Notes under the pieces: model-generated | Databases searched by the model: none | Told to the model about the DNA's origin: nothing | The model's input: only the letters and a program-made list of their open reading frames with translations | Program-made: the position numbers and the translations under genes | Shown here: piece by piece, positions 21,343 to 57,225 of the stretch | How positions within the stretch are numbered: the stretch's first letter is position 1 | Layout: every line of letters starts with the position of its first letter | Virus record (IMG/VR): IMGVR_UViG_2519899535_000001 | Span: 3,526 to 67,525 of that record | Length of the DNA: 64,000 nt | Strand: one strand, 5' to 3' | DNA from: a virus | Taxonomy: Duplodnaviria > Caudoviricetes

Positions 21343-22040
21343 ACACACTGATGACCCTCGCCAGCAAGCCGCTGACGATGAGCAGCCGCGAGATCGCCGT
21401 CCTGGTGGGCAAGGAGCATTTCCACGTCATGCGGGACATCCGCACCCTGCGCACTCAGCTGGGCGAACTGTTCGGCGGGTCCATCCAAACCTGGAGACAC
21501 CCCCAGAACGGGCAGACCTACGACGAGTTCGCCCTGGACAAGGACACCTGCCTCACCCTGCTGCTGGGCTACGACCCCGTAGCGCGGTTGAAGGTGGTCA
21601 AGCGCTGGCAGGAGCTGGAGGCGGGCGCCGTGCCCAAGAGTTTCGCCCAGGCCCTGCGCCTGGCTGCCGAGCAGCAGGAGCAGATCGAAATGCAGCAGGC
21701 CGCCCTGGCCGCCGCCCGCCCGAAGGTGGTCTACGCCGACGCCATGCTGAACGCTGATGGCACGGTCCTGGTGCGCGACGCGGCAAAGACCATCGGCGTG
21801 CCCGTGCGCAAGCTGGAGAAGGCGCTACGCCAGAAGGGCGTGATCCTGCCCGACAACTCCCCGGCCGCGCGCTACGTCACGCAGGGCTATTTCAAGGAGT
21901 CGCTGCACACCTTCGACACGAACACCCGGGGCCGCCAGCTTAGCCGCGTGGCGCGCGTGACCGGACGGGGCCTGGAGTTCCTGCGCCGTTTTGTGGAGCG
22001 CCACGCAGACTTGTTCGGGCAGAGCCGACGCCCAGCATAG
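21339..22040 (+). CDS. Rha + KilAC(ANT) antirepressor-type protein
   Basis: MSSREIA.LVGKEH.HVMRDIR; KSFAQALRLAAE; RPKV.YAD...V.DAAK. Confidence 0.9.
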   Translation: MNTLMTLASKPLTMSSREIAVLVGKEHFHVMRDIRTLRTQLGELFGGSIQTWRHPQNGQTYDEFALDKDTCLTLLLGYDPVARLKVVKRWQELEAGAVPKSFAQALRLAAEQQEQIEMQQAALAAARPKVVYADAMLNADGTVLVRDAAKTIGVPVRKLEKALRQKGVILPDNSPAARYVTQGYFKESLHTFDTNTRGRQLSRVARVTGRGLEFLRRFVERHADLFGQSRRPA

Positions 22041-22072
22041 GGTTAGGCCAATCGCCCATGCCCCGGAAGACT
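22037..22072 (+). promoter_or_regulatory. Late promoter motif 1 (terS)
   Basis: ATAGGGTT at 22037, AAGACT at +30. Confidence 0.7.
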
Positions 22073-22079
22073 CCCGGGC

Positions 22080-23090
22080 ATGGCCAAACCCCCAGCGGGC
22101 AAGAAGTCCGCGCCCCCCAGTAAGAAGACCCCCACCAAGCCTGCAGCCCCCAAGAAGGCCGCAGGCTCAGTCGCACCTGCGCGCAAAGCAGCACCAGCCA
22201 AGAAGGCGCCCGCAGCAAGCACCAAGCCTGCCAAGCCCGTAAAGGCCGCAGCACCACCCAAAGCCAAGGCGCCAGCCAAACCCCCGGCCAAGGCGGAATC
22301 GCCCCCCACAACCCCAGCACCCACCGACTCGGTACTGACCGACAAGCAGCAGCGCTTTGTCGATGAGTACATGGTGGACATGAACGCTACCCAGGCCGCC
22401 GTTCGGGCCGGATACAGCCCGCACACGGCTAATGAACAGGGCTCGCAGCTGTTAGCGAAACTTAGTATCCAGCGGGCTTTGAACGCCGCCCGCAAGGCGC
22501 AGCAAGAGCGCACCCAGATCACCGCCGATGGCGTCCTGCGCGAGGCGTGGAACATCGTCACGGCCGACACCCGCGAGCTGGTGGAGCTGAAAACCGGCTG
22601 CTGCCGCTGCTGCTATGGCGAGGGCCACAAGTGGCAGCGCACCGTGGGCGAAATGAACCGCGACCGCGAGAAGTGGGTGGAGAAGGGCAACAACCCCGCC
22701 GAGTTCGATGAGCAAGGCGGCATTGGCTTCAACCCACTGCGCGCCCCACATGCCGAGTGCCCCGAGTGCGGCGGCGACGGCCATGCGCGCGTGGTGCTCA
22801 AGGACACCCGCTACCTGAGCGAGAAGGCCATTGCGCTGTACGCAGGAGCCAAGCAGACCCAGTTCGGTATCGAGGTGAAGCTGCAGGACAAGTCGTCCTA
22901 TGCCGAGCGCCTGTTCCGCCACCTGGGCCTCTACGAGAAGGACAACGAGCAAAAGACCGATCCGCTCGCCACCCTGCTGCAGCGCATTGCATCGGGCAAC
23001 GGCAATGGGTTCAAGCCCGTGGTCGATGACCCAGAGCGCCCGGCCGCCAGCATGCCCATGCAGCCGGACGACCCCGACGACGGGAACTGA
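22080..23090 (+). CDS. terS: Terminase small subunit with K/A/P-rich N-tail and Cys-rich insert
   Basis: LTDKQQRFVDEYMVDMNATQAAVRAGYS..TA..QG..LL; CCRCC...CPECGGDG. Confidence 0.9.
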   Translation: MAKPPAGKKSAPPSKKTPTKPAAPKKAAGSVAPARKAAPAKKAPAASTKPAKPVKAAAPPKAKAPAKPPAKAESPPTTPAPTDSVLTDKQQRFVDEYMVDMNATQAAVRAGYSPHTANEQGSQLLAKLSIQRALNAARKAQQERTQITADGVLREAWNIVTADTRELVELKTGCCRCCYGEGHKWQRTVGEMNRDREKWVEKGNNPAEFDEQGGIGFNPLRAPHAECPECGGDGHARVVLKDTRYLSEKAIALYAGAKQTQFGIEVKLQDKSSYAERLFRHLGLYEKDNEQKTDPLATLLQRIASGNGNGFKPVVDDPERPAASMPMQPDDPDDGN

Positions 23091-23091
23091 C

Positions 23092-24801: not shown

Positions 24802-24811
24802 GGCGAAGACC

Positions 24812-27085: not shown

Positions 27086-27095
27086 GGCAACCGGC

Positions 27096-27131
27096 ATAGG
27101 GCGCAGCGATCCGGCGCCGTGGCTTGACCAT
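27096..27131 (+). promoter_or_regulatory. Late promoter motif 2
   Basis: ATAGGGC at 27096, GACCAT at +30. Confidence 0.6.
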
Positions 27132-27195
27132 GAGGCCCTACCCGCAACGGTCAGGGTTTCGCCGCAGCCACGGCACCATCACTGGAGTACCAGCC

Positions 27196-27486
27196 ATGTC
27201 ACGCACTTCCCGCCTCTTCGCCATCGCCGCCATTGCCTGCGCTGCTGCCGCTGGCGCCTTCGCTTCGGCCGCCGTTGCCTCGCGCGACTATGTGGTGGCC
27301 GCCGTTCATCGCGCCTGGGACTTCGTGCTCGATGGCTTCCGCGTGAGTGTGGAGGTGCAGCGGATCAGCCCCAGCCAGGACAAGCCGCGCGTGCGGCTGG
27401 TGGCGGCCAAGGCCTTCATCATGCGCATGGCCAAACGCGAGCGCCCTAATGTGACCCCGCTGTGGCGCATGTGCCCGTCCACCTAA
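27196..27486 (+). CDS. Small hypothetical protein with hydrophobic N-terminus
   Basis: GGAG RBS; ends RERPNVTPLWRMCPST. Confidence 0.75.
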   Translation: MSRTSRLFAIAAIACAAAAGAFASAAVASRDYVVAAVHRAWDFVLDGFRVSVEVQRISPSQDKPRVRLVAAKAFIMRMAKRERPNVTPLWRMCPST

Positions 27487-27506
27487 GCGCATGCCGCGAT
27501 CCCCAG

Positions 27507-27533
27507 AAAGCCGCCCACCGAGGCGGCTTTTTT
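27507..27533 (+). terminator. Intrinsic terminator
   Basis: AAAGCCGCC-N6-GGCGGCTTTTTT. Confidence 0.85.
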
Positions 27534-27546
27534 GTGCCCGCCCAGC

Positions 27547-27582
27547 ATAGGGCAGAGGGTTTTCGCCACACCCGTGAATACT
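27547..27582 (+). promoter_or_regulatory. Late promoter motif 3 (scaffold/capsid operon)
   Basis: ATAGGGC at 27547, AATACT at +30. Confidence 0.7.
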
Positions 27583-28776: not shown

Positions 28777-28834
28777 TTTTTTGAAACCGGGCCGCTCGTG
28801 ATGAGCCGCCCCCGTCCCATTGAAGGAGGTCACT

Positions 28835-30130
28835 ATGACCATGAACAGCCACGTACCGGCCGGTTCCGATAAGGCGATGTTTGTTCAGGCTGCGGGCATG
28901 TTTGCCCTGGCCGAAAACCGCGCCTCTCGTCTGGGCCAAATGTCCGGTCCCCTGCCCAAGGGCGAGGGGAAGGTAGCGGAAATGATCCGCAAGCAGTCCA
29001 GCTCCGATTTCCCCATCGTGAAGTGCATGGACTTGTCGCGCGGCACCGGCGACGAGGTGGAATTCCACTTTGTGCAGCCGACCAAGATGCGTCCCACCAT
29101 GGGCTCGCGCATGGTCGAGGGCAAGGGTAAGGGCCTGGCATACGACAAGGCCCGCATCCGCGTGGATCAGGCGCGTATCCCCGTCAAGCTGGGCGACACC
29201 ATGACGAACATCCGTTCGGCCGTGGACTTCACCCGATTGGCACGCCCTGTGGCCCAGTCGCACGCCAATGCGTACATCGACCAGTCGATCCTGACCCACT
29301 TGGGCGGTGCTCGCGGCTTTCACGACAACATCGAGTGGCGCGTCCCCACCGAGGACGATCCCGAGTTTGCCGAAATGCTGGTGAACCCGGTGAAGGCCCC
29401 CACCAAGAACCGTCACTACCTGGCTGACGGCACCAACGGTGTGAAGGCTTTCAGCGTGAACACCGGCGATGTTGCTCTGGCAACCACGGACGACCTGAAC
29501 ATGAGCGTGGTGGATGCCGTTCGCACGCTCATCGAGTCGCTGCCCCTGCCTCCCCCCGCCGTGAAGATCCCCGGCGACATGGCCTCCGAAGACGAGCCGC
29601 TGCGCGCACTGCTGCTGTCGCCCGCCCAGTACCACGCCTTTGCGCAGGATGACAACTTCCGCAAGTTCCAGGTGGCGGCCATGAACCGCGCCGCGAACGC
29701 GAAGCGTCACCCCCTGTTCCTGGGCGAGGCAGCACTGTGGAACGGCATTCTGCTGCTCAAGCAGCCCAAGCCGATCCGCTTTTACGCAGGTAACACCATC
29801 CGCTACAGCGCCAGCAACACGACCGAGAACGAAAGCACCTGCCTGGTGCCTGCATCGTTCACCAACACCCATGCGGTGGATCGTGCGATCTTGCTGGGCG
29901 GCCAGTCGCTGATGCAAGCCTTCGCGGCCTCTGGCATGTCGGGCATGCCGTTCTTCTGGAACGAAGAAACCTTCGACCACAAGGACAAGCGCGAGCTGAT
30001 GATCGGTGTGATCCAGGGCCTGCAAAAGGTTCGTTTCCCTGTGGATCAGGGCGATGGCACCAAGCACTGGACCGACATCGGCGCCATGGCCATCGACACG
30101 GTGGTGAAGCTCATCCCCGGCGAACGCTGA
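28835..30130 (+). CDS. Major capsid protein (DUF4043/N4-gp56-like)
   Basis: AAGGAGGT RBS; PIVKCMDLSRGTGDEVEF...RIRVDQAR; LGGARG. Confidence 0.85.
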   Translation: MTMNSHVPAGSDKAMFVQAAGMFALAENRASRLGQMSGPLPKGEGKVAEMIRKQSSSDFPIVKCMDLSRGTGDEVEFHFVQPTKMRPTMGSRMVEGKGKGLAYDKARIRVDQARIPVKLGDTMTNIRSAVDFTRLARPVAQSHANAYIDQSILTHLGGARGFHDNIEWRVPTEDDPEFAEMLVNPVKAPTKNRHYLADGTNGVKAFSVNTGDVALATTDDLNMSVVDAVRTLIESLPLPPPAVKIPGDMASEDEPLRALLLSPAQYHAFAQDDNFRKFQVAAMNRAANAKRHPLFLGEAALWNGILLLKQPKPIRFYAGNTIRYSASNTTENESTCLVPASFTNTHAVDRAILLGGQSLMQAFAASGMSGMPFFWNEETFDHKDKRELMIGVIQGLQKVRFPVDQGDGTKHWTDIGAMAIDTVVKLIPGER

Positions 30131-30196
30131 TAGGCCACGCGGGGCGCCACGTGCGCCTCGCCTCCATCCCCCTCAATTCAAGAACGGAGGCCAACC

Positions 30197-30676: not shown

Positions 30677-30724
30677 GGAACGGCGGGCCGGGTAACCGGC
30701 CTGCCTCCTTTTCTGGAGGCTCCC

Positions 30725-40470: not shown

Positions 40471-40528
40471 GGTAGACGGCGGCAGCAGCCGCCCCCCCCA
40501 ACATGGTTTGGCGGTATTGGCGCCATGT

Positions 40529-43494: not shown

Positions 43495-46400
43495 ATGAGC
43501 GATACCTTCTCCTACGAAGACGCCGCAAAGCCGGCACCCTCCACTAAGTCCGAATCGGCTAAGCCGTTCAGCTACGAAGAGGCGACGGGGCAGACCCCAT
43601 CGCGTGGCTTCAAGGGCTGGGCGCAGGATGTTGCAGGCACAGCAATCAACAGTGCCATCAGCGTGCCCGAGGCCGTCGTGGGCCTGGCCGACATCCCCAC
43701 GGGCGGTGCCGTAGGCAAGTTCTTGGAGAACGAGGGCGGCTCCGTAGGCTTCCGGCCCAAGCAGGCCAAAGAGTTTGTCAATGAAACGATCAAGTCTGAT
43801 GCTTCGCGCGAAGCCCACCGGAAGTTCAATGAGGCCGATGGCATCGTGGATAAGACGGTTGCTGCCATCCAAAACCCGAGCCTGATCCTTGAGGGTGTAG
43901 GTGAGTCTCTGGGCGCCATGGGTGCCGGTGGTGTTGCCTCGCGCGGTCTGATGGCCGCCACGAAACTCGGACAGATGGGCGCCAAGGGCGCTGCGCTGGC
44001 TGGCGCTGCTGGTGAGGGCATCACCATGGCGGGCTCTGCGGCCGAGCAGATCCGCCAAGAAACCCCGGATGGTTCGCTCACGCCTACTCAATCGGGCCTT
44101 GCTCTTGCGACCGGCCTTGTGGGTGGTGCCATCGGCGCATTCAGCGGGCGTGTCGCCAACAAACTGGGTATCGGTGACGCCGAAACCATGCTCGCCCAGG
44201 GCACAAAGGGTATGGCCAAGACAGAAGCGGACGGCGCAGCACGTGCAGCCGCGAACCCGCTGGTGCAGCAGCTGGCGGCCAAGAGCATCCCGCGCCAGGT
44301 GATCTCGGGGGCAATCTCCGAAGGCTTCCTCGAAGAACTGCCGCAGTCCGTGGCCGAGCAGATTTTCCAGAACGTGGCCCTGGGCAAGGACTGGCTGACG
44401 GATGTGGATTCAGCCGTGGTCATGGGCGTGCTGTCTGGTGGCGCTATGGGCGGCGCAGCCGCTGGCTACCACGGCATCAGGCAGCCGAAGGGCGGTGCTG
44501 GTGATGCGCCAACCGCCCAACCTGGCGCGGTACCCGCCGATGGCGGTGCGCAGCCGGGTGCCGCCCCCACCAACCCGGGCATGGAACGCATCCAGCAGGC
44601 ATTCGCTGCCCAACTGGCGGCGCTGCAGCAGCAGGAGCAGGGCGATCCGCCCGTGCCCCAGACCGCGCCACCCGATGGCGCCGCCGCGCTGGCGCAGCAG
44701 CAGGCCCAGGCCGAAGCCCAGCGCCAGGCTGCCATTGATGCCTCGCGCGCTGTGCAGAGCCCTGACGACGAGATTTACCAGTCCACGGGCATGCAGTCCA
44801 GTCAGAACGTGACGCGCGATGAAAATGCCGCGCCATCCATAGCGGACATGCTGGACACCGACGCCGTATACCGAGCCTGGAGCAATCTGCGGGATGGATC
44901 TGACCGCTCAACCATGCGTGGTCAGATGGACTATGTGGAGCGCACCTACGGCGGAAAGGTGAGCCCTGAAAACCGCGCATCCGCAGAGAAGGAACTTGCG
45001 CAGCAGTTCAAGTGGTTCCGCGCTGCCACGCCGGAGCAGCGTGCGGCCACGATGGACCGCCTGAGTGCACCCGATCCTGTCAAGCCTTCCGTCGCCATGG
45101 GCCTGAACCCTGCCGCAGGCCCGCTGTCTGCTGGTGCTGCACTGGCTGTCGATACCGGCGTATCTGACCAGGTGCAGCAGGCTGCCGCGCTGGCCCAGGC
45201 CGCCGAAGTGGCGCAAAAGCAGGGCAAGAAACCTGCCCAAAGCAATCAAAAACAAGAGCGGCAAGCGCTTACGCAGCAAGGTGTGAACCAAGAAACCGGC
45301 GAAATTTCGCAGGGCTTGCCCATGGAGAGCTGGAGCGATGCCCAGTTGTCCAACACCTTCCGTGGCGCTCAGTCGCGCGAGGTCCGCATGCAACTGGCCC
45401 AGGAACTGGGCCGACGCCGCGCACTGCGTGAGCAGCAGGAGCTGCAGGCCGAGCTGGATGCCGAACAGCGCGCCAGCGTGCCCGGTGCCGAGCGCGCCGA
45501 TGCCGCTTTTGCCTCCCTGACGGAAGACGCCGGCCCCGTACCGGCCGATCTGACCATTCCCGCAACCACAGAAGGAAACCGCAATGGCCCTCAAGCCGCC
45601 CAAGCCCAGCAAGGTAGCGCGCAACCGTCGCAAGTCGGAGCAGCGCCAGCAGTCGCACGTGGAGCACCAGATGCTCAAGGACGCTCAGGCGCGGATGGCG
45701 CGCAGCAAGCAGCCGCTGCAGGCCTGATCGATGGCGCCCCGACTGCGAACCCTGGAATGCAAGCAGCGGCAGCGCCAGGCGCGCAAGTTGCGCCGCAAGC
45801 AGAAGGCTCTGCACAGCGCGTAGCCAGCACTGGCGATGCATGGACGCGTATGCCCACTGCCGAACGCCAGGCCCTGGCCCAGCGGGCGGACCTCAAGCCC
45901 ATCGTGCGCAAGAACGTCCACCGCGCGGCCTGGGCCGATCTGAACCGCGATGTTCAGCGCAAGCTGGCCGAGGCGATGGAGCCCAGCGCGAAGAATGATG
46001 CAACCTACACCAAGGCTCTGGAGTTGGTGCGCAGCGCAGGCGTAGTGAAGCGTCCGGCTATTCAGGATGCCCTGGGTATTGGTTTCGATGAAGTCAATGC
46101 GCTGATGGAGCGCATGGAGCGCGAGGGCGTTGTGACTGCCGCCAAGGCGAATGGCGAACGTGCTTTGCTTTCCGTCGGCACATCGCCCACGGGCGAGGCT
46201 GCGCCAGTCGCAGCACCATCCGTATCCCGTCAGGATGCGGAGCAAGAGCAGGCCGGTACCAGCGCCGAATCTGCACCAGCAGCTATCAATTCAGAAGCGG
46301 ACAAGGACGGAAACACTATCGTCGGCCGCCGCTCTGACGGCGTGATGATTCGCCAGGACAAGAACGGCGTGCGCTGGTATGCCCAGGGCGGCGTGCGCAT

Positions 46401-49400
46401 CGAGGAAACCGTGTCCATGCGCCCCACGCGCCAGGGCATGCAGGTAACGCGCGGCGAGCTGAAACCCGAGTTCATGACGGCGGCAGAGAGCGAGGCGGCC
46501 AAGTCTGCTGCCAGCCCGGCACCAGCTGCAGAAAACGCCATCAATGTTTCTGATGAAAATCAGACCGGTACCAGCACCAAAGAAGCGCCGGTAGCTACGA
46601 ATTCAGTAGCAAAAAAGGCACCTCCTGCTGCCAAGAAGCCCAGCGCTGATCAGGTGCGCGCGCAGGCCGATCTGATGAACGCCCTGGCCGATCTGGGCGA
46701 CATCCTGGGCAAGAACACCCGCATGAACATCATGCCCGAGCAGGAGCAAAAGCTGCTGCCAGTGCTCACGCGCGTGCTGGATGCCGCTTTCCGCCTGGGG
46801 TATCACAAGTTCAAGGATTCGGCCAAGTTCGCCCTGGACCAGATCCGCGCCAACCTGGGCGACGATGCGGCTGACGCCCTGACGCTGGATCACCTGCAGG
46901 GCGCCTACATCGCCATGGCGGGGGGCAAGACGGGAGCGGATACCAAGCGCGCGGTCATCGACGTGGAGAGCAAGGCAGAAATTGAGGCGCACGAGGCCTC
47001 TGTTGCTGCAGAAGAGGACGAGGCCGATAATGCACAGCAGGAGAACCCCAGCGATGAGCGCACAACTGTACGAAGCGAAAGCCCGCAAGCACTGGACGCA
47101 GTGGCTGCCCAAGAAGGTGGCCGCGCTGAAAGCGAGCGGGGAGCTGGAGCAGGCGCTGCAAACAGCGGGCAAACAGGCGCAGCAGGAAGTGCTGTCGCTG
47201 ATGGAGCAGGGTTTTCGCCAGCACGAGGCGGAGGAAGTGGCGTTGAGCCAGTACGTGCTCCTAAAACCAGAGCCCGAGGCCGAGCTGGAGCCGTGGGAGC
47301 GCAAGGAGCTGGCGCAACTGGAGAGCCAGTACCGCAAGCAGATGGGCGCGTAGCCGTCCCTGGGGGCGAGGCCAGCGCCCCGAACATTCCTGCCGCCGAC
47401 TTCCAGATCACCGACGAGGTGGGCCTGGGCAAGGGCGGTGAGGTTCAAAAGTTCACCGACAACCTGGCCGCAATCCGCACCCTCAAGGCTATCGAGGCTG
47501 CCAACCGCCGCGCAACCCCGGAAGAACAGGCAATGCTGGCCCGCTATGTGGGCTGGGGTGGCCTGGCCAATGCATTCCCCGACCCCGGTACCGGCCAGTT
47601 CAAGGACAAGTGGCGTGCGCGTGGTGAGGAACTGCGCGATCTGCTGACCAAGGAGGAATACACCGCCGCGCGCCGCTCGACGCGAAACGCGCACTACACC
47701 TCCCAGACCGTGGTGTCGGCGATGTGGGATATGGTGCGCCGCCTGGGCTACCGTGGCGGATTGGTGCTGGAATCCTCGATGGGCTCCGGCAACTTCCTGG
47801 GCCTGGCCCCCAAGGACATGCCCAATCGGTTCGTGGGTGTCGAATACGACAGCCTGACCGCGCGCATCGGCCAAGCCCTGTACCCGCAGGCGACGGTGCT
47901 GCATTCCGGTTTCCAGAAGGTACCGGTGGCCGACAACGCTTTCATGCTGAACATCGGCAACCCGCCGTTCGGCAGCGAGTCCCTGCGCTTCCAGTTCAAG
48001 CCCGAGCTGCAGGGCGTGTCGATTCACAACCAGTTTTTCCGCGCTGGCATGGATGCGCTGCGCCCCGGCGGCATTCAGGCCATGGTGGTGTCGCGCTTCC
48101 TCATGGACGCGCAGGACAAGAGCAGCCGCTTGGCACTGGCCGCGCAGGCGCGCTTGGTGGCCGCGATCCGCTTGCCTGACACCGCATTCAAGGAGAACGC
48201 GCGCACGGAGGTGGTCACTGACATCCTGATCTTCCAGAAGATGGATGCGGGCGACCAGGCCGCGATGCAGGCCGCCATCACGGAATACAACAAGCTCAAG
48301 GCCAACAAGAAGGGGGCGGACGCAGCCGCCGCCGCGCTGGTGCCCTCCTGGGTGGAAACGGTCAAGGTGCCCGACCCGCTGGGCGGCGAGGCCATGAACG
48401 TCAACGCCTATTTCGCAGAGAACCCGGCGAATGTGCTGGGCGTCATGGAGCGCTCCGGTTCCATGCAGCATGGCGCAGACATCACAGTGCGCTTGGACAA
48501 TCCTGCAGAACTGGGCGAGCTGCTGCGCGCCGCTGTGCAGCGCCTGCCAGAAGGCATCCAGAACTTCCAGCAGGATGTGCTGGACGCTACCGCCGCGCGC
48601 CACAAGTCCATGAGCGACGCTCTGCGCATCGCCGTGGCCAACGAAGAGGCCGGGCACATCAAGGCCAGCCCGGACGGCAAGCTGCAGCGCGTGATCGAGC
48701 GCGAGACGCCGGAAGGCGATTTCGAGTTTGCCTACCAGGAGATTGACGAAAACAGCCCCTGGCATGAATCCCTGAGCCAGAACGCAGAGGGCCAGTGGTA
48801 CAGCATGGAGCCCGTGCTGGACGAGCAAGGCAAGAACGTCAAGGCCATGAACGCCAATGGCGAGGCCACGCGCAAGAACCTGTACGAGCGAAAGGTCTAC
48901 GCCAAGCCCGAGGACGTGCCCGAGAAGCTGCGCCTGGGCAAGCTGGGCATGAAGCGCCTCAGTGGGCTGGTGGGCCTGCGCGACCTGCTCAAGCGCCAGC
49001 TGGTGCTGGAAACGGCCGACGCCGTGCCCGCCATGATGGAGGGCAACCGCAAGAGCCTGGCCGCTGCCTACGAGGCATTCGTCAAGGCCAATGGCCCGGT
49101 GGGGCGTGCCACCAACATGAGACTGGCGATGACCATGCCGGACGGCGGCCTGATCGCCGCCCTGGAGGTGGACTACCAGCCCGAGCGCACCGCAGAGCAG
49201 GCTGCGCGCTCCGGGCTGGAGGCGCAGAAAGAGAAGGCCACGCCGGCACCGATCCTGCGTGAGCGCGTGGTGCCCAAGTATGAGCCCGCGACCAAGGCCG
49301 CCAGCCCATCGGACGCCCTGGCCATCACCCTGGCCGAGTCCGGCCGCGTGGACATGGACCGCATCGCCAGCCTCCTGGATATTAGCCCGGAGCAGGCTGG

Positions 49401-52400
49401 AGAGGCCTTGCAACAGGGCACTGACCCGTTGGTGTTCAAAGACCCTGAAACCGGCCTGTGGGAGACGGCCGACGCCTACCTGTCGGGCATGGTCAAGCGC
49501 AAGCTGAACGCTGCGCGCGCCGCTGGCATGACCAAAAACGCTCAGGCACTGGAGAAGGTCATTCCCGCCGACTGGACCGCAGAGAACGTGGCTGTGACCA
49601 TGGGCGCCACCTGGGTGCCGCCTGAAATCTATGCAGATTTTGTGCGCCATCTGGTGGGCGGCAAGGCGCGGGTGAGCTTTTCGGCTCTGACCAACAGTTT
49701 CAGTGTCAGCGTGGACGGCGCCGAGCGCACCAGCATGTCCAACTGGAGCAGCGAGGGTGCGCCAGCCGACTACATCATCACCCGCATCCTGAACAGCAAA
49801 GCTGTGACCGTCACCGCCCGCGATGCGGACGGCAACACCTTCATCGACAAGGAGCGCACCGCCCTGGCTGGGCTCAAGGCCCGCGAGATTGAGGCCGAGT
49901 TTGGCGACTGGGTTTTCAAGAATGGCGAGCGCCGCCAGCGTCTGGTGGATGTGTTCAACGAGAAGTTCAACACGCGCGTGGTGCGCCAGTTCAATGGGCA
50001 GCACCTGCAACTGCCCGGCAAGGTGCCCGACGCCATCCTCAAGATGCGCCGACACCAGATGAATGCCATCTGGCGCGGTATCTACGAGCGCTTCATGCTG
50101 GTGGACCACGCCGTGGGCGCGGGCAAGACCTTCACCGCCATCGCGCGTGCGATGGAGCGCCGCCGCATGGGGCTTTCGCGCAAGCCCATGGTGGCTGTCC
50201 CCAATCACCTGGTGGAGCAGTGGGCCGCCGATGTGTACCGTCTGTACCCTGGCGCCAAGGTGCTGGCCGCCGGCAAGAAGGATTTCGAGGCCAAGCGCCG
50301 CCGCCGCCTGTTCGGCAAGATCGCCACGGGCGACTGGGACATCGTGATCGTGCCCCATTCGTCCTTCGGGTTCATCGGCATTGCCCCGGAAACGGAGTCT
50401 CGCTACCTGGAGCTGGAAATGGCCCAGGCGCAGGCCGCCATCGAGGACGCCTGGGAGCAGGCCAAGGAGGACGGCACCGACAACGGGCGCCGCAAGCCCT
50501 TCAACGTGAAGGAGGCCGAGCGCCTGGCCGAGAAAATTCAGGCTCGCATGGATCGCCTGGCGGAGGGAGTGCGCGACCGCCTGCTGACCTTTGAGCAGCT
50601 GGGCGTGGATGACCTGACCGTGGACGAAGCCCATGAGTTCAAGAACCTGTACTACTCGTCCAACCTGACGGGTGTGCGCGGCATGGGCGACAAGACCGGT
50701 TCGCGCAAGGCCAACGACCTCTACAACAAGGTGCGGGTGCTGCGCGAGCAGCCCACCGGTAGCGTCACTTTCCTGACTGGCACACCGATCAGCAATAGCG
50801 CCGTGGAAATGTTCACGATGCTGCGCTACCTGGCGGCCGACGCGCTGGACGAAATGGGCCTGTCCCACTTCGACGCCTTCCGCGCGCAGTTCGTGGAGGC
50901 CACGCCTGCGTTTGAGCCCACCGAATCCGGCCGCCTCAAGCAGGTCACTCGCCTGGGCCGCACGTGGTCGAACATGCGCTCGCTGATGGACCTGTACTAC
51001 CAGGTCACGGACGCCGTGAGCCTGGACGACATCAAGCGCTTCTACGCCGAGGACAACCCCGGCCGCGAATTCCCTGTGCCCAAGGTGGCCGGTGGGAAGG
51101 ACCGCAACCTGGTGGCCATCAAGCCCACGCCAGCACAAGAACAGGGCCTCAAGGAGGTGATGGACGGATTCGACGGCCTGGACGGCATCGAAGACCCCTA
51201 CGAGCGCAACGCAGAGCGCCTGCGCCTGATGGACCGGGCGCGCAAGCTGTCTCTGGACATCCGTGCAGTGGACCCGCGCAGCACCAGCGCCGAGGAAGGC
51301 GGCAAGCTGCAGGTGGTGAGCGAGAACATCAAGCGCATCTACGACAAGTGGGATGCCGACAAGGGCACGCAGCTCGTATTCCTGGACCGCTCTGTTCCCA
51401 AGGCCAAGGGTGACGACGCGATCATCAAGGCCTACGATGACCTGATCGCCAAGCGTGATGCCGCACTGCGCGACGACAACCAAGAGGCGTTTGACGAGGC
51501 GCAAGAAGCCCTCGACCGCTACGATCCCCAGGAGATTGCCGAGCTGCGTATGGCGCAAACCTCCCCATGGAGCGCCTACCAGCAGATCAAGGACAACCTG
51601 ATCGCCGCTGGCATCCCCGCCAACGAAATCCGGTTCGTTCAGGAGGCCAACAACGACGAGCAGAAGGCCGCACTGTTTGACGCCGTGAACGGCGGCAAGG
51701 TGCGCGTAATGATCGGTTCGACCCCGCGCATGGGCGCCGGTACCAACGTGCAACAGCGCATCGTGGCACTGCATCACGTTGATGTGACCTGGAAGCCCAG
51801 CGACATCGAGCAGCGGGAGGGCCGTGCCATCCGCCAGGGCAACCTGCTCCTGGAGAAGTACGGCGATAGCTTCGAGGTGGAAATCCTGGCCTACGCCACC
51901 GAGCGCACGGTGGACGCCAAGATGTGGGACTTGAACGCGACCAAGCTGCGCACCATCAACGGTATCCGCAAATACGACGGCGCGTTTTCCATGGAGTTCG
52001 ATGACGAGGAAGCCGTGGGCATGGCCGAAATGGCTGCCCTGGCCTCCGGCAACCCCCTGTTGCTGGAGCGCGTCAAGACGGAATCGGAAATCACCACGCT
52101 GGAGCTGCAGGAGCGCGCTTTCCGCCGCAGGATGTTCGGCATCGAGGACGCGGTGGACAGCGCAGAGCGTGCTATCGAGCGCAACCCCGGCCGCATTGCC
52201 GACGAGCGCGCCAAGAAGGTAAAGGCGAATGCGGCCATGGAGGCGGCCGACGCGCGCAAGGCCGCGCGCCGCGTGACCATCGAGGGCAAGGAATACGACA
52301 ACCTGCGCGACGCTATGACCGCCGTGAACGAGGCCATCGAGCAGCAGCAGGGCGGCAAGCCCACGGCGCGCTACTCGATTTCCGTGGACGGCGCGCGCCT

Positions 52401-55400
52401 GACCAACAAGGACGGCATCGACACTGCGATTGGCGCTGCCCTGGGCGATGCATCCCTGTTCGATGTGACCATCGACGGGCGCCTGATCGCCCAACACACC
52501 GTTGCCGCACGTGAACTGGCCGCCAAGTTCAACGAGCTGACCAAGGGCATCCAAGCTGGCGACTCGCGCACCGCCACTGTGGGCGACATGCTGGGCTATG
52601 ACCTGGTGCTGGACGCCCAGGCCCGCGAAACCGGCAAGGGCGGCGCCCAGATCGACGCCTCGGTGTCGCTGGTGGACGCGGACGGTACCACCGTGACCAG
52701 CCGTGGATTGAATTCATTCGCAGTCAATCAGTCCGTGGTGCCCGCCAATGTTCGCAATCTGGTGACTGATCTGTTCGATGACATTGGCCGCCTGGCCAAC
52801 AGCAGCACCGACTACCTGGAGCGCCAGCTTGCGCGGGCGAAGGCAGATCTGCCGGCACTGCGCGAGCAGCTGAACCAGACGTTCCCCAAGGCGGCCGAGC
52901 TGGTTGCCAAGCGTGAGCGCCTGCGGGAGCTGGTGGGCATGCTGGAGGGCAAGCCGCAGAGCGCCGTTCAAACGACCCCTGAAGAAGCCGAGGCGGGTGA
53001 CGGATCTCCGGGGGGCGACGTGGCGGCATTCCGACGCGACGGTGCCGAAAGCTCAGAGCGGGCGACCGAGTTCGACGTGGATTCGTTCCTCAAGGCCATG
53101 GGGCGCCCAGCGGCCTACTCCGAGGCCGCGCAGCGGCAGGCCATAGACTCCGTTTCAGCCACGGTGGATGCCATCCGCACTGCCTGGGGCCCGAACGCGC
53201 CAGAGGTGGTGGTGGCCTTCGACATGCAGGATGAGCGCATCCCAGAGGCCGCCCGCAAGGCCGACCTGCGCCAGCGCAGCGGCGGCGCACGCGGAGCGCC
53301 CGAGGGCTTCTACTACCGTGGCAAGGCCTATCTGGTGGCCTCTCGCCTGAACACGCCAAATGATGCGGCGCGCGTGCTGTACCACGAGGTGCTGGGACAC
53401 CACGGTCTGCGCGGTAAGTTCGGCCGCGATCTGGACCAGGTGCTGAACCAGATCGCCACCATGCGCAAAGCCGAGGTGGCCGCCAAGATGCAGGAGTACG
53501 GCCTGCGGGGCGTGAACAGCCTGAGCGTGCGCGAGGCGGCCGAGGAAGTTCTGGCGGAAATGGCCGAGAAGAACCCCCAGCTGCCGTTTGTGCAGCGGGC
53601 GATTTCAGCCATCCGCAACTTCCTGCGCACCCATGTGCCGGGCTTCCAGAGCCTGCGCCTGACGGACAGCGACATCATTCAGGCGTACATCATGCCGGCA
53701 CGCGGATGGGTGGAGCGCGGTGGCCCCGGTGGTCCTGGTGGTGGTGTCAGTTTCAGCCGAGACGCGGGCCGAATGGAGGCGGACGCGCTCCGGCTGCTGG
53801 CCGCCGCAGCTCGCTCTTCCGGCAACGAGAACACCACGCTTGTCCTGGGGCCGGTGACAGACGATGCCTTGGCCATGCTGCAGCGCGAGGGCGTTCCTGT
53901 GGAGTCAGGCTATCGGCACACTGCCGACATGTATGCGGTGCGCCACGCCCTAAGTCGTCACGGCGATGCGCAAGTGGAGGCGAAGCAGGGCCAGCTGCCA
54001 CTGAGTGATGCGGACATCGCGGCCATTCCAGAGGCCATTGCAGCGCCGGATGCTTGGATTCTTGGGGCCAAGACGCCGCGCGGGCAAGACATCGTGGGCA
54101 ACCTAAAGCGATTGCCTGATGGAACGGTGCTGTATTTGGAGGAAGTGCGCTCGGGGCGCAAGGCGCTGGCGATGACCAGCATGAGAAAGTACCCCGGTAC
54201 GACGGATTTTGAAACGATCAGGAATCGAATCGTGCCGTCCTACGCCCAGAGCGATACCGGGGATTTGCGTATTGTCTATCCAGCCGGCGCTGCCGGTCAA
54301 GGAGAGGTCCTGTTCAGCCGCTCCAGCATGGCGGACTTGAAGGACAGTGCGCTGCAGCAGATCCACCAGACCCTGTCCCACCCCGGAAAGGTGTCGTTGT
54401 GGGATAAGACAGTGGGCACCATGCGCAACCTGGCAGAGCGCTCGCCGGTGTTCAAGCCGGTGTACGAGGCTGCGCAGCGCTTCATTGATGACGTTTCCAT
54501 GCTGGGCAACGATGCGGCCGACCGCGCGCCGCGCTTGCTGCCCCGGGTTGAAACGCTGGCCGACCTCAAGAAGAAGCCCATCACCGCCGCCGACAACCAG
54601 GCTGTGGCCAAGCCCCTGTTCGAGGGCACGCTGCTGTGGGCGCGCGATGTGGACGGCAAGCCAGTGACCACCGAGGCGCTGAACGCGAAGTACCGCAACA
54701 CCACGCCCGACGAAAAAGCGCAGATCCTGCTGCGCACCGGCAAGATTCAGGAGCAGATGCTCAAGGTATGGCGCGGCCTGCCGGTGGATCAGTACAACAC
54801 CATCATCAACAACAAATTTGATAGCACCATCCTCAAGCCGGGTGTTGTCTGGACGGCGAAAGAGCTGAAAGACTTGTTCGACCTGAGCGCCCAGCAGGTG
54901 AGCCTGTACCAGGAGGCGCGGGCCGCGATTGACCGATCGATCGACATGACCGCCCGCGCCGACATGCTGCGCGCGCTGGGTGCCGGATACGCTGGCCTGC
55001 GTGAGGCAGTGCTGGCGCAGGCCAGCGTGGAAGACGCGATGGTGCTCATCACGGACACGCTGCAGGCCGAGGCGCGCGAGCAGCCTGACCAGGCCGACCG
55101 CATCCTGAGCCTGAACAACGCCGTGGTGAAGAGCTACGAGCGCGCCCAGGCGCTGATGGAGGCCGGCTACGCGCCGCTGTCGCGCTTTGGCCGCTACACC
55201 GTGGACGTGGTGGGCAAGGACGGAACGCGCGAGTATTTCGGCATGTTTGAGTCGATGTACGAGTCCAACAAGATGAAGGCCGCCATGGAGAAGGAATTCC
55301 CAGGCGCGACCGTCACCCAGGGCACCATGAGCGATGAGGCATTCAAGCTGTTCCAGGGCATCACCCCGGAAAGCCTGGAGCACTTCGGTGAAATGTTGGG

Positions 55401-57183
55401 CTTGAGCGGCGATGGCAGCGATCCGAAGGACAAGGCATTTCAGGCATACCTGCAGCTGGCCAAAAACAACCACAGCGCGCTCAAGCGCCTGATCCACCGC
55501 AAGGGCATCAGTGGCTACAGCGAGGACGTGGGCCGCGTGCTCGCCAGCTTCGTGTACTCCAATGCGCGCCTGGCGGCCGGCGGTCTGAACGCAGGCACGC
55601 TGGAAACGGCCATCGAGGGCATCCCCAAGGAGCAGGGCGAGCTGCGCGACGTGGCGATGGGCCTGCGCAGCTACATCCAAGACCCGCAGGAGGAAGGCCA
55701 GGCCGTGCGCGGCATGCTCTTCGCGCAGTACCTGGGCGGCTCCGTGGCTTCGGCCATGGTCAACATGACCCAGCCTTTCCAGATCACCATGCCCTGGCTG
55801 TCCCAGTTCGGTGGCATGCGTAGCGCCGCATCGCACCTGGCTGCCGCAGTGCGCGACATGACCCGCCGCAGCAGCTACGAGCCAGACCTGGCCAAGGCGC
55901 TGCAAACGGCAGAGGCCGAGGGCATCGTTTCGCCCCAGGAAATTCACCAGCTCATGGCCCAGGCGCGGGGCGCGGGCTCGCTGCGCACGGGCGATGGCAC
56001 CAAGCTGGGCGACGCACGCGCCGCGGCGGCCAACAACTGGGAGCGGGTGAAGGTGGCATGGGGCCAGCCATTTGCACTGGCAGAGCAGTTCAACCGCCGC
56101 AGCACCTTCATCGCCGCCTATCGCATCGCCAAGGAGCAGGGCATGGCCGACCCGGCGAAGTTTGCCGAGCGTGCAGTGCAGGAAACGCAGTTTGTGTACT
56201 CCAAGGCGAACAAGCCGAAGTGGGCGCGCGGTGCCATCGGCGGCACGCTATTCACCTTCAAGACCTATTCGGTCAGCTACCTGGAGCTGATGCACCGCAT
56301 GTGGAGCCAGGGCGGCCCCGAGGGCAAGCGCGCCGTGGGCTGGGCCGTGGCCATGCTGCTGCTGATGGGTGGTGCTGGCGGCCTGCCGTTCATGGAGGAT
56401 GCCGAGGATCTGATCGACGGCGCCGGCCAGCTCATGGGCTACAACATCAGCACCAAGCACTGGCGCAAGCAGGCGCTGCGCGACGTGGTGGGCAAGGAGC
56501 TGGCCGACTTCATGGAGCAGGGTGTGTCCGGCTTGCCCGGTGCGCCCATCGACGTGTCCGGCCGCCTGGGCATGGGCAACCTAATCCCCGGCACCGGCCT
56601 GCTGCTGGCCAAGCAGAACCGGGAGCGGGACCTGCTGGAGGTGGCTGGGCCCGCGGGCGACCTGGTGGCGCGCGGCTTCACTGGCGCGCGCAAGCTGCTG
56701 ACCGGCGACGTGGTCGGCGCGGCGCTGGAGGTGTCGCCAACGGCGGCGCGCAATTGGGCCAAGGGCATCGACATGGGTACCAGCGGTATCTACAAGGATG
56801 CCAAGGGCTACAAGGTCATCGACACCACGCTGGAAGAGGCCATTGCGAAGTTCGCGGGCTTCCAACCCAAGAGCGTGGCCGAGGTGCAGGAGGCCAACTC
56901 CTTCATGCAGCGCTCCAAGAGCTTCTACATCCAGACCAGCAACGACATCAAGGCGCAGTGGGCACAGGCGGTGTTTGAGAAGGACGACGCCGCGCTGCAG
57001 CGAGTGCGCGACCGACTGGCCGCCTGGAACCGCAACAACCCGGACCAGCCTATCGTGGTGAAGATCCCGGACGTGATGAAGCGCGTGCGCGAAATGGGCA
57101 AGGACCGTACCCAGCGGATTGCCGACACCGCGCCCAAGGCCCTGCGGGATCAGATGCGGAGCATGGCCAAAGAGAACGGGTAG
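43495..57183 (+). CDS. Giant DarB-like polyvalent virion protein (~4,562 aa): N6-MTase, SNF2 helicase, HExxH peptidase-like, PBECR-like, PLxRFG, LPD38-like
   Basis: VLESSMGSGNF (47764), IGNPPFG (47953), HAVGAGKT (50107), DEAH (50623), QREGRAIRQGN (51811), HEVLGHH (53383), PLSRFG (55174). Confidence 0.9.
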   Translation: MSDTFSYEDAAKPAPSTKSESAKPFSYEEATGQTPSRGFKGWAQDVAGTAINSAISVPEAVVGLADIPTGGAVGKFLENEGGSVGFRPKQAKEFVNETIKSDASREAHRKFNEADGIVDKTVAAIQNPSLILEGVGESLGAMGAGGVASRGLMAATKLGQMGAKGAALAGAAGEGITMAGSAAEQIRQETPDGSLTPTQSGLALATGLVGGAIGAFSGRVANKLGIGDAETMLAQGTKGMAKTEADGAARAAANPLVQQLAAKSIPRQVISGAISEGFLEELPQSVAEQIFQNVALGKDWLTDVDSAVVMGVLSGGAMGGAAAGYHGIRQPKGGAGDAPTAQPGAVPADGGAQPGAAPTNPGMERIQQAFAAQLAALQQQEQGDPPVPQTAPPDGAAALAQQQAQAEAQRQAAIDASRAVQSPDDEIYQSTGMQSSQNVTRDENAAPSIADMLDTDAVYRAWSNLRDGSDRSTMRGQMDYVERTYGGKVSPENRASAEKELAQQFKWFRAATPEQRAATMDRLSAPDPVKPSVAMGLNPAAGPLSAGAALAVDTGVSDQVQQAAALAQAAEVAQKQGKKPAQSNQKQERQALTQQGVNQETGEISQGLPMESWSDAQLSNTFRGAQSREVRMQLAQELGRRRALREQQELQAELDAEQRASVPGAERADAAFASLTEDAGPVPADLTIPATTEGNRNGPQAAQAQQGSAQPSQVGAAPAVARGAPDAQGRSGADGAQQAAAAGLIDGAPTANPGMQAAAAPGAQVAPQAEGSAQRVASTGDAWTRMPTAERQALAQRADLKPIVRKNVHRAAWADLNRDVQRKLAEAMEPSAKNDATYTKALELVRSAGVVKRPAIQDALGIGFDEVNALMERMEREGVVTAAKANGERALLSVGTSPTGEAAPVAAPSVSRQDAEQEQAGTSAESAPAAINSEADKDGNTIVGRRSDGVMIRQDKNGVRWYAQGGVRIEETVSMRPTRQGMQVTRGELKPEFMTAAESEAAKSAASPAPAAENAINVSDENQTGTSTKEAPVATNSVAKKAPPAAKKPSADQVRAQADLMNALADLGDILGKNTRMNIMPEQEQKLLPVLTRVLDAAFRLGYHKFKDSAKFALDQIRANLGDDAADALTLDHLQGAYIAMAGGKTGADTKRAVIDVESKAEIEAHEASVAAEEDEADNAQQENPSDERTTVRSESPQALDAVAAQEGGRAESERGAGAGAANSGQTGAAGSAVADGAGFSPARGGGSGVEPVRAPKTRARGRAGAVGAQGAGATGEPVPQADGRVAVPGGEASAPNIPAADFQITDEVGLGKGGEVQKFTDNLAAIRTLKAIEAANRRATPEEQAMLARYVGWGGLANAFPDPGTGQFKDKWRARGEELRDLLTKEEYTAARRSTRNAHYTSQTVVSAMWDMVRRLGYRGGLVLESSMGSGNFLGLAPKDMPNRFVGVEYDSLTARIGQALYPQATVLHSGFQKVPVADNAFMLNIGNPPFGSESLRFQFKPELQGVSIHNQFFRAGMDALRPGGIQAMVVSRFLMDAQDKSSRLALAAQARLVAAIRLPDTAFKENARTEVVTDILIFQKMDAGDQAAMQAAITEYNKLKANKKGADAAAAALVPSWVETVKVPDPLGGEAMNVNAYFAENPANVLGVMERSGSMQHGADITVRLDNPAELGELLRAAVQRLPEGIQNFQQDVLDATAARHKSMSDALRIAVANEEAGHIKASPDGKLQRVIERETPEGDFEFAYQEIDENSPWHESLSQNAEGQWYSMEPVLDEQGKNVKAMNANGEATRKNLYERKVYAKPEDVPEKLRLGKLGMKRLSGLVGLRDLLKRQLVLETADAVPAMMEGNRKSLAAAYEAFVKANGPVGRATNMRLAMTMPDGGLIAALEVDYQPERTAEQAARSGLEAQKEKATPAPILRERVVPKYEPATKAASPSDALAITLAESGRVDMDRIASLLDISPEQAGEALQQGTDPLVFKDPETGLWETADAYLSGMVKRKLNAARAAGMTKNAQALEKVIPADWTAENVAVTMGATWVPPEIYADFVRHLVGGKARVSFSALTNSFSVSVDGAERTSMSNWSSEGAPADYIITRILNSKAVTVTARDADGNTFIDKERTALAGLKAREIEAEFGDWVFKNGERRQRLVDVFNEKFNTRVVRQFNGQHLQLPGKVPDAILKMRRHQMNAIWRGIYERFMLVDHAVGAGKTFTAIARAMERRRMGLSRKPMVAVPNHLVEQWAADVYRLYPGAKVLAAGKKDFEAKRRRRLFGKIATGDWDIVIVPHSSFGFIGIAPETESRYLELEMAQAQAAIEDAWEQAKEDGTDNGRRKPFNVKEAERLAEKIQARMDRLAEGVRDRLLTFEQLGVDDLTVDEAHEFKNLYYSSNLTGVRGMGDKTGSRKANDLYNKVRVLREQPTGSVTFLTGTPISNSAVEMFTMLRYLAADALDEMGLSHFDAFRAQFVEATPAFEPTESGRLKQVTRLGRTWSNMRSLMDLYYQVTDAVSLDDIKRFYAEDNPGREFPVPKVAGGKDRNLVAIKPTPAQEQGLKEVMDGFDGLDGIEDPYERNAERLRLMDRARKLSLDIRAVDPRSTSAEEGGKLQVVSENIKRIYDKWDADKGTQLVFLDRSVPKAKGDDAIIKAYDDLIAKRDAALRDDNQEAFDEAQEALDRYDPQEIAELRMAQTSPWSAYQQIKDNLIAAGIPANEIRFVQEANNDEQKAALFDAVNGGKVRVMIGSTPRMGAGTNVQQRIVALHHVDVTWKPSDIEQREGRAIRQGNLLLEKYGDSFEVEILAYATERTVDAKMWDLNATKLRTINGIRKYDGAFSMEFDDEEAVGMAEMAALASGNPLLLERVKTESEITTLELQERAFRRRMFGIEDAVDSAERAIERNPGRIADERAKKVKANAAMEAADARKAARRVTIEGKEYDNLRDAMTAVNEAIEQQQGGKPTARYSISVDGARLTNKDGIDTAIGAALGDASLFDVTIDGRLIAQHTVAARELAAKFNELTKGIQAGDSRTATVGDMLGYDLVLDAQARETGKGGAQIDASVSLVDADGTTVTSRGLNSFAVNQSVVPANVRNLVTDLFDDIGRLANSSTDYLERQLARAKADLPALREQLNQTFPKAAELVAKRERLRELVGMLEGKPQSAVQTTPEEAEAGDGSPGGDVAAFRRDGAESSERATEFDVDSFLKAMGRPAAYSEAAQRQAIDSVSATVDAIRTAWGPNAPEVVVAFDMQDERIPEAARKADLRQRSGGARGAPEGFYYRGKAYLVASRLNTPNDAARVLYHEVLGHHGLRGKFGRDLDQVLNQIATMRKAEVAAKMQEYGLRGVNSLSVREAAEEVLAEMAEKNPQLPFVQRAISAIRNFLRTHVPGFQSLRLTDSDIIQAYIMPARGWVERGGPGGPGGGVSFSRDAGRMEADALRLLAAAARSSGNENTTLVLGPVTDDALAMLQREGVPVESGYRHTADMYAVRHALSRHGDAQVEAKQGQLPLSDADIAAIPEAIAAPDAWILGAKTPRGQDIVGNLKRLPDGTVLYLEEVRSGRKALAMTSMRKYPGTTDFETIRNRIVPSYAQSDTGDLRIVYPAGAAGQGEVLFSRSSMADLKDSALQQIHQTLSHPGKVSLWDKTVGTMRNLAERSPVFKPVYEAAQRFIDDVSMLGNDAADRAPRLLPRVETLADLKKKPITAADNQAVAKPLFEGTLLWARDVDGKPVTTEALNAKYRNTTPDEKAQILLRTGKIQEQMLKVWRGLPVDQYNTIINNKFDSTILKPGVVWTAKELKDLFDLSAQQVSLYQEARAAIDRSIDMTARADMLRALGAGYAGLREAVLAQASVEDAMVLITDTLQAEAREQPDQADRILSLNNAVVKSYERAQALMEAGYAPLSRFGRYTVDVVGKDGTREYFGMFESMYESNKMKAAMEKEFPGATVTQGTMSDEAFKLFQGITPESLEHFGEMLGLSGDGSDPKDKAFQAYLQLAKNNHSALKRLIHRKGISGYSEDVGRVLASFVYSNARLAAGGLNAGTLETAIEGIPKEQGELRDVAMGLRSYIQDPQEEGQAVRGMLFAQYLGGSVASAMVNMTQPFQITMPWLSQFGGMRSAASHLAAAVRDMTRRSSYEPDLAKALQTAEAEGIVSPQEIHQLMAQARGAGSLRTGDGTKLGDARAAAANNWERVKVAWGQPFALAEQFNRRSTFIAAYRIAKEQGMADPAKFAERAVQETQFVYSKANKPKWARGAIGGTLFTFKTYSVSYLELMHRMWSQGGPEGKRAVGWAVAMLLLMGGAGGLPFMEDAEDLIDGAGQLMGYNISTKHWRKQALRDVVGKELADFMEQGVSGLPGAPIDVSGRLGMGNLIPGTGLLLAKQNRERDLLEVAGPAGDLVARGFTGARKLLTGDVVGAALEVSPTAARNWAKGIDMGTSGIYKDAKGYKVIDTTLEEAIAKFAGFQPKSVAEVQEANSFMQRSKSFYIQTSNDIKAQWAQAVFEKDDAALQRVRDRLAAWNRNNPDQPIVVKIPDVMKRVREMGKDRTQRIADTAPKALRDQMRSMAKENG
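45584..45727 (+). CDS. Nested +1-frame basic peptide (47 aa) MALKPPKPSKVARNRRKSEQ...
   Basis: AAGGA RBS at 45572; GC-rich third positions in the +1 frame, A/T-rich in the main frame. Confidence 0.55.
   Translation: MALKPPKPSKVARNRRKSEQRQQSHVEHQMLKDAQARMARSKQPLQA
45731..45823 (+). CDS. Nested +1-frame basic peptide (30 aa) MAPRLRTLECKQRQRQARKLRRKQKALHSA
   Basis: Starts 3 nt after previous nested stop; same codon-bias shift. Confidence 0.4.
   Translation: MAPRLRTLECKQRQRQARKLRRKQKALHSA
47054..47353 (+). CDS. Nested +1-frame gene (99 aa) MSAQLYEAKARKHWTQWLPKK..., TnpV-like helical protein
   Basis: AGGAG RBS at 47039; typical codon usage and globular sequence while the main frame is G/A/R-rich. 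Confidence 0.75.
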   Translation: MSAQLYEAKARKHWTQWLPKKVAALKASGELEQALQTAGKQAQQEVLSLMEQGFRQHEAEEVALSQYVLLKPEPEAELEPWERKELAQLESQYRKQMGA

Positions 57184-57189
57184 CCCGGT

Positions 57190-57225
57190 ATAGGGTTGGG
57201 GGAAATGAGCGCGAGCCGGAAAACT
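57190..57225 (+). promoter_or_regulatory. Late promoter motif 6 (lysis)
   Basis: ATAGGGTT at 57190, AAAACT at +30. Confidence 0.7.

Follow-up and report, generated by a model that had tools for sequence, protein, structure and literature searches.

The late genes of an F116/Bcep22-like prophage in an Acidovorax genome are preceded by six copies of a two-part DNA element, in which a conserved box is followed at a fixed distance by a -10-like hexamer. These copies are very probably the switches for the late (virus-building and lysis) genes and, judged from sequence, they probably act as activator-dependent promoters of a temperate podovirus. The likely activator is a 200-aa winged-helix protein encoded just before the late region. 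The preliminary description of this DNA had recognized the repeated element but lacked three of its features, namely the candidate activator gene, the longer form of the box and a hairpin that encloses the hexamer at three leaderless-type sites.

Six two-part elements in an Acidovorax prophage

The window, by which we mean the whole 64-kb stretch of DNA that was analysed (G+C 64%), is part of a 5.2-Mb single-contig genome and holds a prophage spanning about 12-60 kb, with head genes at about 67% DNA identity to those of the Pseudomonas phages F116, LKA5 and phiC725A. The gene layout obtained from PHROG and Pfam scans is given in Table 1 together with the six elements, numbered P1 to P6; an Rfam scan of the window matched no family. 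As had been claimed, ATAGGG occurs on the plus strand at 22037, 27096, 27547, 40529, 43453 and 57190, in each case intergenic and ahead of a late unit, and a hexamer follows each copy exactly 30 nt later. The other plus-strand copies (1609, 5174, 14770 and 15764) are without a hexamer. The combined pattern ATAGGG-N24-RANMMT matches six times in the window, against 0.02 matches expected from 100 dinucleotide shuffles. In the looser form ATAGGG-N24-NANNNT there are 31 matches on both strands of the whole genome, six of which fall in this 35-kb stretch, all on the plus strand, a local excess of about 35-fold over the rest of the genome. Bare ATAGGG is not significantly enriched in the window (13 seen, 9.5 expected) and was rejected as the signal, which is instead an extended box with the hexamer at a fixed distance. 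Alignment of the six sites gives the longer box gCC(C)nGYATAGGGY, and with this box no further site in the genome resembles the six.

Table 1. Elements, inverted repeats and genes of the prophage, with positions in the window
Feature	Position	Strand	Details
cI-like repressor	14290-15045	-	PHROG/Pfam scans
Replication genes	from 16000		PHROG/Pfam scans
Candidate late activator, 200 aa	20740-21342	+	phrog_8117 match
Rha + KilAC (Ant-like) gene	21339-22040	+	Pfam PF09669, PF03374
P1	22030-22072	+	box CCCAGCATAGGGTT, hexamer AAGACT (22067-22072); leaderless-type, terS ATG 22080
Inverted repeat enclosing P1 hexamer	22054-22085	+	3' arm holds terS ATG; MFE -19.7 kcal/mol, z -3.9 (flank shuffles)
terS, then terL, then portal	22080 (terS start) to 27085 (portal end)	+	
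P2	27089-27131	+	box ACCGGCATAGGGC, hexamer GACCAT; ahead of SD-led 96-aa gene
96-aa protein	27196-27486	+	signal-peptide-like N-terminus; SD GGAG
Intrinsic terminator	27507-27533	+	GCCGCC-CACCGA-GGCGGC + T6, read from sequence; closes P2 unit
P3	27540-27582	+	box CCCAGCATAGGGC, hexamer AATACT; structured leader of about 158 nt
Scaffold/capsid unit	from 27748	+	SD-led
Major head protein	28820-30130		PHROG/Pfam scans
P4	40522-40564	+	box CCATGTATAGGGTT, hexamer AAGAAT; SD GGAGG, ATG 40593
707-aa virion/ejection protein	ATG 40593	+	SD GGAGG
P5	43446-43488	+	box CCCCGTATAGGGTT, hexamer GAGCAT; leaderless-type, giant-gene ATG 43495
Inverted repeat at P5	43472-43500	+	core GCACGC/GCGTGC, P5 hexamer is the loop; runs into ATG; MFE -19.3 kcal/mol, z -4.8
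4562-aa DarB-like giant protein (13.7-kb gene)	43495-57183	+	
P6	57183-57225	+	box CCCGGTATAGGGTT, hexamer AAAACT; leaderless-type, holin ATG 57234
Inverted repeat enclosing P6 hexamer	57210-57236	+	GAGCCGG/CCGGGCTC; ends at holin ATG; MFE -12.6 kcal/mol, z -2.1
Holin	ATG 57234	+	

It had also been proposed that late transcription is split into several units. The P2 unit is closed by an intrinsic terminator, and a new copy of the element (P3) follows 14 nt later; the units therefore appear to be re-initiated rather than read through. Canonical sigma-70 promoters between 21.5 and 41 kb number one, against 2.6 expected. The proposed separation from lambda-type Q control is likewise borne out by domain searches. 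The lambda-Q family (covered by PF06530) and the Ogr/Delta family (PF04606) have no match in the genome, a six-frame genome search for Mor (PF08765) found a single match at 3.96 Mb, outside the window, and no Sigma70_r2 domain was found in the window.

Several observations concern individual units. The gene for the 96-aa protein, with a putative late promoter and a terminator of its own between the portal and scaffold genes, forms a moron-like unit, and a paralog (58% identical) is located near the lysis end of the prophage in the closest relative, G020. The leader that follows P3 (27590-27747) is strongly structured (MFE -71.9 kcal/mol) without an Rfam match, and holds two CGCU-GUGA-AGCG hairpins with GNRA loops, the first of which is kept in G020 and several viral contigs. 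Just upstream of P4, a GC hairpin (GGCGGC-AGCA-GCCGCC) followed by eight C and no T-run lies at 40477-40500, after a gene that ends at 40470; this may be a non-canonical 3'-end structure. The giant protein encoded downstream of P5 has Pfam matches to a PBECR3 nuclease domain (residues 3463-3570) and FtsK-gamma (833-892) and weak ones to SNF2 and ResIII; the Pfam scan found no RNA polymerase domain in it.

Conservation of the element and its candidate activator

Prophages were fetched from related genomes via terS, extended and scanned for the element, and further loci were fetched via the 200-aa protein (46 viral contigs and 23 genome contigs), with hosts including Acidovorax, Comamonas, Ottowia, Alicycliphilus, Paracidovorax, Pseudomonas and Acinetobacter. 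The fixed spacing asserted in the preliminary description withstood this comparison, with the two-part element kept in phages whose terS shows only 55-60% identity. G020 contains eight copies. G051a and G048, with terS 52-55% identical, contain six and five copies, respectively, of the variant GCGCGC-N4-5-TAGTGTT at the same spacing, and G088, G051b, G065 and LKA5 have the variant CCCCC-N2-3-TAGGGTT with the hexamer at the same distance. Orthologs of individual window sites were also found, that of P1 in G020 and many contigs and those of P4 in G051a and G048. A search of viral contigs for more phages of the TAGTGT type returned only the same phage again.

Across 1.35 Mb of related F116/Bcep22-like loci, non-redundant sites number 96 on the coding strand against 4 in the opposite orientation. 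Of 138 boxes, 88 have NANNNT at offset 29, counted from the T of TAG; each of the remaining offsets between 20 and 39 accounts for only 0-8. A logo of 81 sites places the information in CCCnGyATAGGGTT and in R-A-C-A-C-T, with CCC-R-G-Y-A-TAGGG-T-T as the full box and RACACT as the hexamer consensus. Offset, orientation and logo thus indicate strong selection on both spacing and orientation, and these sequence statistics mark the two-part element as a DNA signal rather than a chance repeat. The bases that follow TAGGGT in many sites (TTCGAC) resemble a weak -35 located 17-18 bp from the hexamer. SD-led sites have a conserved CAAGC 6-7 nt after the hexamer, where a transcription start would be expected; at P3 the motif is CAAGCC, at the same distance 3' of the hexamer, and is kept in the orthologous sites. 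A T7-like promoter (TATAGGG) was considered and dropped, there being no conserved 23-bp block and no polymerase gene.

The gene for the 200-aa protein is the only early-right gene common to all six relatives. The protein matches no Pfam family above cut-off, and its AF2 model (pLDDT 80) comprises a winged helix (residues 25-82, modelled with pLDDT about 90), a small beta domain and a 50-residue coiled-coil-like helix. Residues 22-86 superpose on IdeR (Z 10.8, rmsd 1.7 Å, 65 aligned), and the winged helix also matches TtgV, PefI and MarR (Z about 10). Foldseek matched the wHTH domain only (rmsd 1.3-1.4 Å over about 61 residues), with no match at E <= 0.001 for the whole model, and the regulator profile, searched against PDB chains, gave nothing meaningful (best E 0.15). 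In the model, a three-helix bundle with a beta wing lies on solved wHTH domains, as expected of a winged-helix DNA-binding protein.

Homologs are present in all six relatives, in LKA5 (gp037; hhalign 99.9%) and in the 46 viral and 23 genome contigs. The element lies downstream of this gene in most high-GC loci, and in most contigs the regulator stop codon falls within about 100 nt of the terS site. Presence of the two also largely coincides: in G092 a site is present at the regulator-bearing locus and absent from the terS locus that lacks the regulator, and G103 has neither, yet G106 has a canonical terS site and no detectable regulator. Three regulator clades differ in the recognition helix together with the box. 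Those with VDDRLRAL have the box CCCRGYATAGGG, those with VDDH(L/V)xR have CCCCC-N2-3-TAGGG and those with VDER(L/I)RVL have GCGCGC-N4-5-TAGTG, a covariation across three clades only that fits direct readout of the box by the helix. Through these associations, the 200-aa winged-helix protein is the likely late activator.

Three further groups of loci deserve mention. The G106 site, at 8662 in L126:5582-9432 (G106:C81), is a canonical box-hexamer-ATG arrangement in a locus that also encodes a primase-helicase and a 254-aa terS-like product and may be a satellite that borrows the late activator of a helper phage. In Giesbergeria and Simplicispira prophages, a leaderless-type element stands directly before the regulator gene itself (L111:7936-7980 and L113:4748-4792), which suggests positive autoregulation of the regulator. 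AT-rich Acinetobacter-type phages (L090-L098, L120 and L122) encode a regulator homolog that is 37-39% identical with a similar recognition helix; the canonical box is mostly absent from this clade and was seen only in L097.

Two other candidates for reading the element were weighed against the 200-aa protein. The Rha/KilAC gene is an insertion between the 200-aa regulator gene and the terS promoter, with its stop codon overlapping the first box, so its product, which contains a Rha-type DNA-binding domain, adjoins the first promoter; as the activator it is scarcely credible, because the gene was found in only two of the seven element-carrying phages compared (the window and G020, among the window and six relatives). 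It is also unlikely that a specialised initiation factor, either an alternative sigma of the host or a sigma-like phage protein that escaped recognition, reads the element with no separate activator, leaving the winged-helix protein to do something else. RACACT is more specific than TATAAT and unlike it, and the fixed 23-bp gap has the look of a two-block sigma-type motif, but such a gap is too long for known sigma-70-family spacing, the prophage has no Sigma70_r2 domain, and in Comamonadaceae and Pseudomonas phages the element accompanies the winged-helix gene.

Leaderless-type starts and the hairpin around the hexamer

At three of the six sites, as the preliminary description had noted, the ATG follows shortly after the hexamer, by 7 nt for terS, 6 for the giant gene and 8 for holin, without a purine-rich SD; the other three precede SD-led genes (27196, 27748 and 40593). 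No in-frame start lies upstream of terS or holin in the window. Downstream, terS has no alternative in-frame start within about 150 nt, and the next one in holin is a GVG-type GTG about 117 nt away that would leave a 60-aa protein, so that later starts would truncate both proteins and neither gene appears to have a plausible alternative start. The start assigned to the giant gene (43495) gains support from relatives, with the N-terminus xSYEDA conserved from that ATG in G088 and G051b. Among the 81 non-redundant sites, 43 have the start codon of a long frame 6-9 nt after the hexamer and no SD. The commonest distance in these leaderless-type sites is 7 nt, and all of the starts are ATG apart from one GTG. 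The spacing is invariably 6 nt at giant-gene sites and 8 nt at the holin sites of G020, G065, G051a and G048. SD-less start codons at a fixed distance from the hexamer, located where the promoter would start transcription, fit leaderless mRNAs.

The inverted repeats found at P1, P5 and P6 are a general property of the leaderless-type sites, in all 43 of which the hexamer is enclosed by 4 or more pairs (median 9), with a mean z of -3.0 against flank shuffles. Among the 38 SD-led sites, the mean z is +0.1 and almost none has a hairpin (Mann-Whitney p about 1e-10 against the leaderless-type sites; the sites are related by descent, and this p-value and the one given below overstate independence). 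Stems vary between sites (CATGCCCCGG, GCACGC, GCGCGCC, GTACACG, GAGCCCGG, CCGGGAG and others), indicating that pairing rather than a particular sequence is kept. The ATG usually falls within the 3' arm, and the pairing probability of the start codon in read-through RNA is 0.72, compared with 0.48 for random ATGs (p 5e-6). To our knowledge, proteobacterial phages seldom show leaderless starts so strictly linked to a hairpin that covers both the -10 and the AUG.

The possibility that the hairpin belongs to the 3' end of the preceding gene, crowded into a short gap, was considered and rejected on the distance to the upstream stop codon. Leaderless-type sites with that stop more than 60 nt away keep the hairpin (z -2.75), and SD-led sites with the stop within 25 nt have none (z +0.19), so the structure is independent of stop distance and not simply the end of the preceding gene. 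Comparing the folding energies of the sense and antisense strands gave no sign of hairpin selection at the RNA level: the sense strand is 1.1 kcal/mol less stable, and G-T or T-G pairs make up 20 of 378, split evenly. The 5' arm of the repeat is necessarily missing from any transcript beginning at the ATG, and for this reason the preferred reading is silencing of the AUG in read-through RNA, where the hairpin most likely hides the SD-less start codon. That the inverted repeat is, more broadly, a functional part of the promoter is a tentative proposal with two forms. As an insulator, it would pair with the SD-less start codon in any read-through RNA, so that terS, the giant ejected protein and holin would be translated only if transcription starts at their own activator-dependent promoters, and it would stand in for terminators between early and late units. 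Alternatively, the repeat would extrude as a cruciform in supercoiled DNA and offer the -10 to RNA polymerase as a single-stranded loop.

Since hairpins could be processing or 3'-end structures, one might ask whether the elements are promoters at all, or rather sites or structures for packaging, replication, RNA processing or operon insulation. This seems highly unlikely given the 96:4 preference for the coding strand, the intergenic location directly ahead of gene starts, the fixed distance to the ATG, the SD-led copies without hairpins and the hairpins' independence of the upstream gene end. It is improbable, too, that TAGGGT is the real -10 (TAnnnT) with a start about 7 nt later. The hexamer would then be a sigma-dependent pause or loading site, the nascent RNA would fold into the hairpin, and the winged-helix protein encoded at the Q position would be an antiterminator or elongation modifier. 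All of TAGGGT, TAGTGT and GTAGGG do fit TAnnnT, the hairpin would in that case belong to the transcript, and the regulator gene sits where lambdoid phages carry Q. However, there is no -35 or TGn upstream of TAGGGT, with the conserved CCC only 5-7 nt upstream, and SD-less ATGs 6-9 nt after the hexamer would be left unexplained. The presence of six copies, one of them directly 3' of a terminator, also speaks against it, as do the SD-led sites, which keep the hexamer spacing without any hairpin, and the protein itself, a plain winged helix with no lambda-Q family match.

Proposed mechanism and comparison with known systems

Returning to the elements as activator-dependent promoters, their design resembles that of class II activation, with a -35 that is weak or absent and a hexamer in which A2 and T6 are conserved. 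Class II activators, lambda cI at PRM and Mu Mor/C classically sit around -42, and the pseudo-dyad CCC-N6-GGG of the box is centred at about -42.5 only if the hexamer occupies -12 to -7. No hexamer has T at its first position, and agreement with TATAAT is limited to positions 2, 4 and 6, so recognition of the hexamer by sigma-70 is assumed here. From the anatomy of the elements, their statistics and their co-occurrence with the regulator gene, we infer where transcription starts, what binds, which sigma factor acts and what the hairpin does, as follows. A dimeric winged-helix protein from the early-right operon would bind the 14-bp box, a pseudo-dyad overlapping the weak or absent -35, and would bring host sigma-70 RNA polymerase to RACACT, a weak -10 hexamer 23 bp downstream of the box. 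The six promoters would drive, respectively, terS-terL-portal, the small secreted protein, the scaffold, capsid and tail genes, the ejection protein, the giant DarB-like gene and lysis. The mRNAs of terS, the giant gene and holin would be leaderless, with the A of the start codon as their first nucleotide, and the inverted repeat would pair with this codon, so that these three genes would be translated only from own-promoter transcripts.

Temperate podoviruses of the F116- and Bcep22-like kind, which carry out generalized transduction, occur commonly in Pseudomonas and Comamonadaceae and have relatives that infect Burkholderia and Ralstonia. We found no description in the literature of how their late genes are switched on. 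Publications on F116, phiC725A, Bcep22/JC1, Hollowayvirus and leaderless late promoters gave no account of the element or of a role for the 200-aa protein, with the F116 genome paper lying outside this coverage, and the LKA5 record holds ab initio promoter predictions only. With a 14-bp box, a fixed spacer and a candidate activator, late units and true gene starts, including that of the 13.7-kb giant gene, could be annotated across the group, and the lysis decision in these phages could be studied directly. Promoter and activator pairs that are tightly off by default could also be built for high-GC hosts, and the link between leaderless start and hairpin provides a simple system in which to test whether promoter choice gates translation.

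Each known system shares some of these features. As with lambda Q, the regulator gene ends the early-right operon before the late genes and a -10-like hexamer is part of the signal, but here there is no Q family match, six promoters take the place of one, and a terminator is followed by a new promoter instead of read-through. The early hairpin promoters of N4 have a stem of 5-7 bp and a 3-nt loop and are read by the virion RNA polymerase (vRNAP). A short inverted repeat in the promoter and a podovirus with a giant virion protein are common to both systems, whereas the elements here serve late genes, their loops are at least 6 nt long and hold the hexamer, and the Pfam scan of the giant protein shows no polymerase domain. 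Staphylococcal activators of the RinA/LtrC type act on a promoter directly upstream of terS and control packaging and morphogenesis genes (PMC3152322). Those proteins and hosts are unrelated to the present ones, and a single late operon promoter there contrasts with a repeated two-part code with leaderless-type starts here.

Two further known systems have activator sites near -42. Lambda cI activates PRM from a site near -42 beside a weak -35, and the leaderless cI mRNA starts at the A of the AUG. Both the activator site and the leaderless transcript would recur in the prophage; lambda, however, has one maintenance promoter for the repressor gene and not a late regulon of six promoters, and the protein fold and the inverted repeat around the -10 are different here. 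In Mu, middle and late promoters without a good -35 are activated by the small dimeric phage proteins Mor and C at an imperfect dyad centred near -43, similar to the pseudo-dyad at about -42.5 predicted here if the hexamer is the -10, and again several late promoters are involved. The window contains no Mor-family domain, the candidate being instead a winged helix with a beta domain and a long helix, and Mu late genes lack both leaderless starts and a hairpin surrounding the -10. In kind, then, this is probably an activator-dependent late regulon like that of Mu C/Mor, from which it differs in protein family, in box and in its combination of leaderless-type starts with a hairpin.
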